From contig CAYLOA010000005.1 in NCBI GenBank assembly GCA_964385185.1, forward strand, positions 1 through 61,655: a stretch of 61,655 bases of DNA, written 5' to 3'. The notes beneath the pieces were generated by a model, which was not told where the DNA came from, did no database searches, and saw only the letters and a list, made by a program, of their open reading frames with translations. The translations under genes and the position numbers were made by a program. Of the stretch, positions 8,828 to 8,944 are shown piece after piece. Source of the stretch: an uncultured Methanosarcinales archaeon (GTDB taxonomy: Archaea > Nanobdellota > Nanobdellia > Woesearchaeales > CALCXY01). Position 1 is the first letter of the stretch. Every line of letters begins with the position of its first letter.

Positions 8828-8876
8828 TTAGCCACCACAACAACTGGCACTCACAGAGTGCAGTTGTGGTGACTAA
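8828..8876 (+). repeat. ACA-triloop bulged hairpin element, copy A1
   Basis: TTAG-C-CACCACAAC[AAC]TG[G]CACTC-ACA-GAGTG-CA-GTTGTGGTG-A-CTAA; homologous to 24073-24115 and 24121-24165. Confidence 0.8.
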
Positions 8877-8891
8877 AATACAAAACTACTA

Positions 8892-8923
8892 CTCGCAGCG
8901 CTATTTTAATGAGGCGCTGCGAG
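8892..8923. repeat. GC-rich perfect 10-bp inverted repeat (A2)
   Basis: CTCGCAGCGC (8892-8901) and GCGCTGCGAG (8914-8923) around a 12-nt AT-rich loop. Confidence 0.7.
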
Positions 8924-8927
8924 AGTG

Positions 8928-8944
8928 GGGACTCTGTGAGTCCC
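8928..8944 (-). repeat. short ACA-triloop hairpin (A3), inverted relative to A1
   Basis: Minus strand reads GGGACTC-ACA-GAGTCCC. Confidence 0.6.

Follow-up and report, generated by a model that had tools for sequence, protein, structure and literature searches.

Hairpins at two intergenic loci

The stretch of DNA analyzed here, referred to as the window, comprises 61,655 nucleotides of contig CAYLOA010000005.1 from an uncultured archaeon. At two intergenic loci, A and B, it carries GC-rich hairpins of one architecture. The recurrent hairpin, designated H1, is present once at locus A (unit A1) and twice at locus B (units B1 and B2); at locus A it is accompanied by two further hairpins, H2 and H3. 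These hairpins belong to a genuine family of intergenic repeats, not described before, that are GC-rich and conserved in structure and occur in marine Woesearchaeota-like archaea. The features of the two loci are listed below, with bit scores referring to the covariance model described in the next section.

Locus A
7803-8780, minus strand: kae1/tsaD, left neighbour of the locus, ATG at 8780 (TsaD, E = 2.7e-81)
8803-8810: TATA-like box TTTATAAA, as read from the sequence, located 17 nt from the A1 foot and 23-30 nt upstream of the kae1 start codon
8828-8876, plus strand: H1 unit A1, lower stem TTAG-C-CACCACAAC / GTTGTGGTG-A-CTAA, internal loop of AACTG (5 nt) against A (1 nt), upper stem GCACTC/GAGTGC, ACA triloop; 71 bits
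8892-8923, plus strand: H2 hairpin, CTCGCAGCGC, 12-nt loop, GCGCTGCGAG
8924-8944, plus strand: AGTG linker and H3 hairpin GGGACTC-TGT-GAGTCCC, the downstream partner of H1, with an ACA loop when read on the minus strand
8984-8993: TATA-like box CTTTATAAAG, conserved together with the flanking TTTTGTATTAGG in the closest relative
9037, plus strand: ATG of the gene to the right of the locus

Locus B
23346-24047, minus strand: livF-type ABC ATPase gene, downstream neighbour of the locus
24072-24118, plus strand: H1 unit B1, (CAC)3 subtype, upper stem GCACCC/GGGTGC, ACA loop; 67.7 bits
24121-24165, minus strand: H1 unit B2, (CAC)2(TAC)2 subtype, upper stem GCTCAC/GTGAGC; 66.2 bits
24181-24906, minus strand: livG, upstream neighbour of the locus

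The three bulged hairpins were confirmed at the positions given in an earlier, sequence-only reading of the window, with the upper stems reported there (CACTC/GAGTG, CACCC/GGGTG and CTCAC/GTGAG) and an ACA triloop in each. The perfect 10-bp hairpin (8892-8923) and the inverted TGT-loop hairpin (8928-8944) that it had described at locus A are both present, and the locus lies, as proposed, between two sequences that can be read as TATA-like boxes. A1, B1 and B2 fold 4-7 standard deviations better than shuffled sequences, with z-scores of -4.5 to -5.6 when folded as RNA and -4.3 to -5.3 when folded as DNA. Loci A and B are the sole intergenic, GC-rich, strongly folding islands of the window. B2 is inverted relative to B1, such that the two units form a dimer resembling the bacterial interspersed mosaic elements (BIMEs) that are built from repetitive extragenic palindromes (REPs), and a GTAG tetranucleotide is located 8 nt 5' of the B1 stem. 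H2 of locus A is the counterpart of a CTCGCAGTC-GNRA-GACTGCGAG hairpin at related loci (labelled with L numbers in the following), and an identical copy of its H3 is found in a relative (L051, 1381-1397).

A family of covarying hairpins

Further copies were sought in public collections with the strict pattern CACCAC-N(0-7)-GGCNNNCACAGNNNGCAG-N(0-3)-TGGTG. The metagenome scan returned 18 matches, 17 of which were in marine contigs of ~35% GC (Tara and JGI marine samples) and corresponded to 13 non-redundant loci. The upper-stem triplets that the pattern leaves free were perfectly complementary in 17 of 17 cases, and six different triplets were represented (ACT, ACC, TCA, ACA, ATG and GCC). By contrast, looser patterns applied to viral contigs as a control gave complementary triplets in 0 of 11 and 0 of 14 matches. 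In total, 18 distinct H1 units were identified at 15 loci (two in the window and 13 metagenomic), all intergenic and each with the conserved asymmetric loop; copies were found on eight contigs of a single metagenome.

In an alignment of 16 sequences, the upper stem was 100% paired, and its three variable pairs were altered on both sides only. The covariation score obtained was reached by none of 500 shuffles. A covariance model recovered all copies at 54-76 bits and, in addition to the 17 pattern copies, detected two copies outside the window that are beyond the reach of the pattern (L029 12163-12219 and L019 13224-13280). These two provide new compensatory variants, with the upper stem GTGCCC/GGGCAC and the lower stems CAC(AAC)3 and (CAT)2(CAC)2. 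The search pattern itself accounts in part for the conservation of CACCAC, TGGTG and the GGC..CACAG..GCAG core; the evidence for the structure is provided by the free positions and by the two model-only copies. With further metagenomic copies and covariation beyond that of the shuffles, the proposal of a new repeat family with covarying stems is borne out.

The contrary view, that these are unrelated chance hairpins or ordinary terminators, is already refuted and is no longer credible. It could draw on the facts that intergenic hairpins are common and that permissive Rfam matches are generic miRNA-like noise. However, the core GGCNNNCACAGNNNGCAG has three matches in the window, where shuffles predict 0.03, triplet complementarity is complete in the marine copies and absent from all 25 control matches, the covariance-model scores are as given above, and the bulge and loop are conserved over many contigs.

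No known family accounted for the hairpins. Searches of the whole window against Rfam 15 at gathering thresholds gave no match, and the permissive mode applied to both loci gave only sub-threshold noise of the kind just mentioned. ARAGORN detected no tRNA gene or tRNA half in the 61.6-kb window. By inspection, the hairpins do not fit a k-turn, H/ACA, C/D, bulge-helix-bulge, SECIS, hammerhead or group II domain V structure, and they are without the tandem G.A pairs of a k-turn, a 3' ACA box or a bulge-helix-bulge. A blastn search of GenBank phages and PLSDB plasmids gave no match, and three scans of viral contigs gave non-complementary chance matches or none. The strict pattern had a single, chance-like match among the GTDB species representatives, in a Chloroflexia metagenome-assembled genome (MAG), which suggests either that the lineage is missing from that set or that its copies are off-pattern. 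The literature on archaeal REPs or DPANN repeats yielded generic palindrome surveys only, with no account of this hairpin family; a paper describing a palindrome tool reports generic palindromes in archaea and nothing resembling it (PMC12306157).

Anatomy of H1 and combination with other modules

In the lower stem of H1, (NAY)n/(RTN)n triplets form 9-14 bp, the 5' strand having one triplet more than the 3' strand (at L015, exceptionally, the additional triplet is on the 3' strand). Above it are an asymmetric internal loop, in which NAC-YG (5 nt) of the 5' strand faces a lone A of the 3' strand, and a 6-bp upper stem closed by GGC/GCC and capped by the ACA triloop, which in one relative is replaced by a branched insert of ~95 nt. 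The whole unit is 43-49 nt long. In the architecture first proposed, the stems and the triloop are upheld, but the YG/CA mini-helix is not conserved, since Y can be C or A. Similarly, the description of the 3-nt bulge as a duplication of the adjacent triplet holds for the window hairpins (AAC-AAC, CAC-CAC and TAC-TAC), but the feature is better read as a triplet-repeat lower stem with one extra 5' triplet. The single-stranded sequence ACYGG/CUACUGG recurs, in the H1 internal loop and in the loop of the three-way-junction hairpin described below.

H1 is one module of a mosaic. It pairs with H2-H3, with a three-way junction or with an inverted second H1, giving the following arrangements.

Type I: H1, H2 (CTCGCAG..-GNRA or longer loop-..CTGCGAG), AGTKG and H3 (GGNNNNC-TGT-GNNNNCC), at window A, L013, L021 and L024
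Type II: H1 followed by a three-way junction, the last arm of which is an H3-like TGT hairpin, at L022, L023 and L030
Type III: H1 and, downstream of it, a full H1 of unlike subtype in inverted orientation, at window B, L029 and L019
Single H1: at L015, L016, L017, L020 and L026

The partner modules are also found without H1. H2-H3 stands alone at L016 4806-4850, where a T-run follows, and at L051 1381-1429; the three-way junction stands alone at L051 ~18640-18730. Two CACAG-type hairpins are present together at 10 loci; in every case, the ACA loop precedes the TGT loop, and the reverse was never observed. The scaffold gap (a run of N) at L051 ~1280-1293 lies ~90 nt from the H3-H2 module; a gap in this position suggests that the repeats may break assemblies, in which case copy numbers in MAGs may be underestimated.

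The 5' flank is also distinctive. GTAG occurs within 26 nt 5' of the core in 9 of 18 copies against 1.3 expected (p = 1.4e-6), whereas on the 3' side it occurs in none of the 18. A second motif, ATGTT, is located no more than 18 nt upstream of the stem in 6 of 18 H1 units (0.5 expected), for example at window 24166-24172 on the minus strand and in the flanks at L020, L021, L026, L029 and L016; it may belong to the element or represent a target motif or a transcription start. Translation of a small open reading frame (ORF) from an upstream ATGTTG was ruled out by a stop at codon 3 in some copies. Adjacent to the 5' flank of B2, at window 24170-24189, is a tandem direct repeat, ATTATCCTC(A/C), present twice, with the livG stop codon within the second copy.

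Turnover of the element sites

Locus A is identical in contigs of the same strain. The closest relative, Tara scaffold_841, in which Kae1 and LivF are 89 and 88% identical to those of the window, lacks the element at both window sites. At the site of locus A it has a gene of 374-393 aa with no assigned function, and its homology to the window stops just within the TATA-like box at 8984-8993, on the element side. At the site of locus B it has a 348-aa periplasmic binding-protein gene that is translationally coupled to livG and livF, and the homology ends precisely at the stop codon of livG and the start codon of livF. A contrast of filled and empty sites at kae1 and livG-livF was therefore obtained only in part: the element is absent from the relative, but a gene stands in its place. 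Over ~30 kb of synteny with scaffold_841, the gene content differs at approximately six points; the window elements lie on two of these and none lies at the others.

Three orthologous sites embedded in ~80-90% identical flanking DNA, from genomes that have diverged by ~20%, differ in module content or orientation. L013 (type I) and L023 (type II) carry H1 units that are 95% identical and one compensated pair apart. The simple H1 of L017 corresponds to an L051 unit in which the foot, bulge and GGC/GCC closure are kept and the ~95-nt branched insert replaces the ACA-loop top. At the third site, L020 has an H1 and L051 an inverted H2-H3 module. Given that orthologous sites carry differing modules and orientations, the sites are old, with content that is modular and exchangeable or flippable.

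The region upstream of kae1 is a hotspot of gene content. In relatives (L034/L035, L042 and L043) it is occupied by a 23S_rRNA_IVP gene, a HepT/MNT toxin-antitoxin pair, or a GC-rich stretch, both tRNA-like and intron-like, beside RusA and SHOCT genes.

These observations bear on the quite improbable alternative that the hairpins are structure-specific single-strand recombination sites, comparable with integron attC or the attP of CTX phage, at which genes are gained or lost and where a recombinase reads the foot and bulge while the top varies. The closest relative has a gene corresponding exactly to each of the two window loci, and homology ends at the stop and start codons of the neighbours. 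This is as the alternative would have it, as are the kae1-upstream hotspot, the retention of foot and bulge beneath tops that range from a triloop to a 95-nt branched insert, and the position of the window elements on two of the approximately six gene-content differences. However, the genes of the relative are without flanking hairpins or half-sites, its binding-protein gene looks native by virtue of its translational coupling, and the other gene-content differences are without the element. Moreover, a 390-aa gene that is extra in the window is unrelated to the 374-aa gene of the relative. In common with attC, the hairpins conserve structure over sequence and have asymmetric unpaired or extrahelical bases, a variable apex and an association with gene content. 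They differ in having no R''/R' core consensus, no co-oriented cassette array and no intI found. Identity with attC was rejected on these grounds: the RYYYAAC/GTTRRRY core fails (AAC/GTT occurs only in the AAC subtype), the loci are single units or inverted pairs, and no integrase domain was found nearby.

Action as DNA or as RNA

The stems are nearly all Watson-Crick (~3% G.U pairs), and the fold energies of the sense and antisense strands are about equal. An element that acts as a DNA palindrome fits these data, although a comparison of G.U with A.C between the strands favoured neither DNA nor RNA. The covariation includes transversions (C-G to G-C or A-T), without one-sided intermediates.

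A serious, if rather unlikely, rival is that the elements act as RNA, either as small non-coding RNA genes of ~110-180 nt (H1, a variable domain and H3) or as cis-acting modules that stabilize or terminate the transcripts of their neighbours; the ACA and UGU loops (CACAG/CUGUG) might then kiss or bind a protein. In these ~35% GC genomes, tRNAs and rRNA account for all other GC-rich folding islands between genes. GAAA and GUAA tetraloops are found in H2 on the H1-sense strand only, and T-runs follow H3 at L013, L021 and L024, i.e. at three of the four type I loci, and at the stand-alone H2-H3 of L016. The three-way-junction domain has 17 compensated pairs among three sequences and includes a hairpin that is strongly conserved in sequence. 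The element is sense-oriented in all three asymmetric tandem-gene contexts (L017, the H2-H3 of L016, and L024), a TATA box is located 30-38 nt upstream of H1 at 6 of 10 loci, and copies adjoin tRNA genes at L013/L023, L022, L024 and L029.

Other observations are difficult to reconcile with an RNA. Modules and even orientation differ at orthologous sites of close relatives, which would be unusual for a functional RNA gene, and a relative whose flanking proteins are 88-89% identical lacks it at both window sites. At loci with an upstream TATA box, a GAAAC beside the box, which resembles a transcription factor B recognition element (BRE), faces the divergent neighbour and not the hairpin element. 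G.U pairs are very few, and the two strands fold equally well; inverted full-length dimers and a dimer within an operon are difficult to interpret as genes; no Rfam match was obtained even in permissive mode; and no T-run follows H3 at window A. Among known RNAs, the closest likeness is to small structured archaeal non-coding RNAs that form GC-rich islands in AT-rich genomes, such as the Hgc RNAs: in both cases, strongly folding intergenic islands are observed, some of them beside tRNA genes. Some modules also share GNRA loops and downstream T-runs with these RNAs, but the present family differs from them in its lack of an Rfam match, its multi-copy mosaic form, the swapping of modules and orientation at orthologous sites and the near absence of G.U pairs.

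Relation to REP/BIME elements and other known systems

We tentatively interpret the hairpins as dispersed, GC-rich, mosaic palindromic repeats, i.e. REP/BIME-like DNA elements with a putative partner protein, an assignment that we hold with slightly less than even confidence. The family itself, its structure and covariation, the mosaicism, the turnover of sites, the presence or absence between relatives and the GTAG asymmetry are observed, whereas action at the DNA level, mobility and the existence of the partner protein are inferred. Both REPs and H1 are short, imperfect intergenic palindromes with a conserved asymmetric bulge, here in 18 units at 15 loci. Inverted pairs of two subtypes at window B, L029 and L019 recall the y and z REPs; H1 forms mosaics with other short motifs, H2-H3 and the three-way junction being combined with it or found alone; and the loci vary between relatives. 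GTAG is the tag read by REP-associated tyrosine transposases (RAYTs) at the foot of bacterial REPs (PMC3479197, PMC3733652). As in GTAG-REPs and REPINs, it is enriched on the 5' side only, though present in just half of the copies. The suggestion that the family is REP- or miniature inverted-repeat transposable element (MITE)-like is supported in its first part, by bulged palindromes, inverted dimers of unlike units, mosaics and, in part, the 5' GTAG, but not in its second, as target-site duplications are lacking and the two units of a pair are not identical terminal repeats. A classical MITE was rejected for the same reasons, paired units being of unlike subtypes and no direct repeats flanking the borders.

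The differences from REP/BIME elements are also substantial. The host is an archaeon, whereas REP/BIME-type repeats and their domesticated Y1 transposases are, to our knowledge, considered a bacterial feature. At 43-49 nt, the units exceed REPs in length, and they are distinguished by a lower stem of triplet repeats, an internal loop of fixed size (5/1 nt) and an ACA triloop. Bacterial REPs are for the most part downstream of ORFs, where the adjacent genes are unidirectional or convergent, whereas approximately half of the present loci lie between divergent genes, 20-60 nt past the TATA box of an apparently leaderless neighbour; the remainder lie between tandem genes or beside tRNA genes.

This atypical placement is one of several points that weigh against the interpretation as REP/BIME-like elements. 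No transposase, integrase or HUH/Y1 domain was found in the window ORFs (including by Pfam annotation) or in the neighbours of related loci, where some neighbouring genes were examined individually and, for the 106 locus ORFs, the 25 most frequent families were covered. The absence of a transposase from the window, as first read, was borne out by these domain searches, and the adjacent Y1/RAYT or TnpB gene that had been suggested was found neither in the window nor among the neighbours of related loci examined. No recurrent gene was observed among the neighbours examined, which are housekeeping genes; a single-copy partner protein could easily be encoded elsewhere in the genome. In a survey of 172 archaeal genomes, the Y1 transposases were all of the IS200 type (subclass 1.1), and TnpA of the RAYT subclass was not found (PMC6006769). 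GTAG is missing from half of the copies, is often base-paired (with CTA) and lies at a variable distance from the stem. No clean empty site and no target-site duplications were found at the element borders of the loci compared. In the ~68 kb of the window genome that was covered, there are only two loci (three H1 units), so that a high copy number per genome, as in bacterial REPs, can only be presumed. Finally, the GNRA loops of H2, the T-runs after H3, the conserved three-way junction and the sense orientation in tandem contexts would fit an RNA equally well.

Resemblance to the ends of IS200/IS605 elements and to haloarchaeal PATE-type MITEs lies in the bulged hairpins that are read as single-stranded DNA, the guide-like tetranucleotide at the 5' foot and the occurrence in archaea. 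However, the left-end and right-end hairpins of IS200/IS605 are direct on one strand, whereas paired hairpins here are always inverted; neither tnpA nor tnpB was detected in the window or in the individually examined neighbours; and the stems show combinatorial diversity rather than near-identical copies. This candidate was therefore rejected on the inverted pairing and the lack of a nearby tnpA/tnpB.

If the hairpins are REP/BIME-like DNA elements, a mechanism can be proposed as follows. Whenever replication or promoter melting leaves the DNA transiently single-stranded, each unit would fold on its own strand. A putative structure-specific protein, most plausibly of the HUH-Y1 type or another single-stranded DNA nuclease or recombinase, would read the units via the displayed single-stranded ACYGG and GTAG motifs and would copy or recombine modules into permissive intergenic sites. 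Selection on the element, together with palindrome-templated correction, would maintain foldability and could account for paired transversions with almost no G.T intermediates. We regard as improbable the more far-reaching proposal that DPANN archaea possess a hairpin-based single-stranded recombination or transposition system of their own, in which the foot and bulge (triplet stem, ACYGG and GTAG) would be read by a novel protein, the top would be free to hold structured cargo of any kind, and the positions of gene loss or exchange during genome reduction would be marked by these sites.

As DNA elements, the hairpins would extend the REP/BIME class to archaea and point to a putative structure-specific protein. 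They would also offer a handle on intergenic turnover and on gene loss in reduced archaeal genomes, because both window copies are located where a close relative keeps a gene. As RNAs, they would represent a new family of multi-copy structured RNAs and would be the principal structured RNA other than tRNA in these organisms. With the covariance model and the module catalogue, the question of DNA or RNA is testable on existing marine metagenomes and metatranscriptomes.

Host and further features of the window and related contigs

The best named homologs of the neighbouring proteins are from Nanoarchaeota, Candidatus Woesearchaeota and Nanoarchaeia MAGs, with which the earlier guess of a DPANN host is in agreement. 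Copy-bearing contigs encode archaeal housekeeping genes, including those for L15e, Rpb2, SRP54, the proteasome, aIF5A, aIF2-alpha and SerRS.

Several further observations were made. The 3' part of the gene beside locus A (9388-9515, plus strand) is a GC-rich, proline-rich, low-complexity coding stretch of CCACCACC repeats; judged by sequence, these resemble the CACCAC strand of the H1 lower stem, which may be a coincidence. At L013 3101-3178, a tRNA-like gene missed by ARAGORN, probably because of an intron, is followed by a perfect hairpin, GGCTCAGAAC-AAT-GTTCTGAGCC, and T8, which has the shape of a bacterial-style terminator in an archaeon.

At 14973-15302 (minus strand), a 109-aa ORF that abuts dph2 encodes only the N-terminal dimerization domain of a Glu/Leu/Phe/Val dehydrogenase (GDH). 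At the same junction, the closest relative has a full-length GDH gene, two VTT-domain genes and a pyridine-nucleotide oxidoreductase gene (L067 1-3799); given the full-length region in the relative, the window genome seems to have lost ~4.7 kb, leaving a gene stump. No hairpin element is present at this junction. No Pfam domain is recognized in the extra 390-aa ORF (11454-12626, minus strand), which is flanked by DUF3179 and DsbD genes and missing from the closest relative; a relocated copy of the kae1-upstream 374-aa ORF of the relative was ruled out, as the two are not homologous. The adjacent DUF3179 gene is shorter in the window (213 versus 340 aa).

The metabolic genes of the window include ATP-citrate-lyase-like and succinyl-CoA-ligase-like genes (42414-44437) and several thioredoxin, DsbD and cupredoxin genes; a ParE-like toxin gene is also present. 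For a DPANN genome, this gene repertoire is fairly rich.

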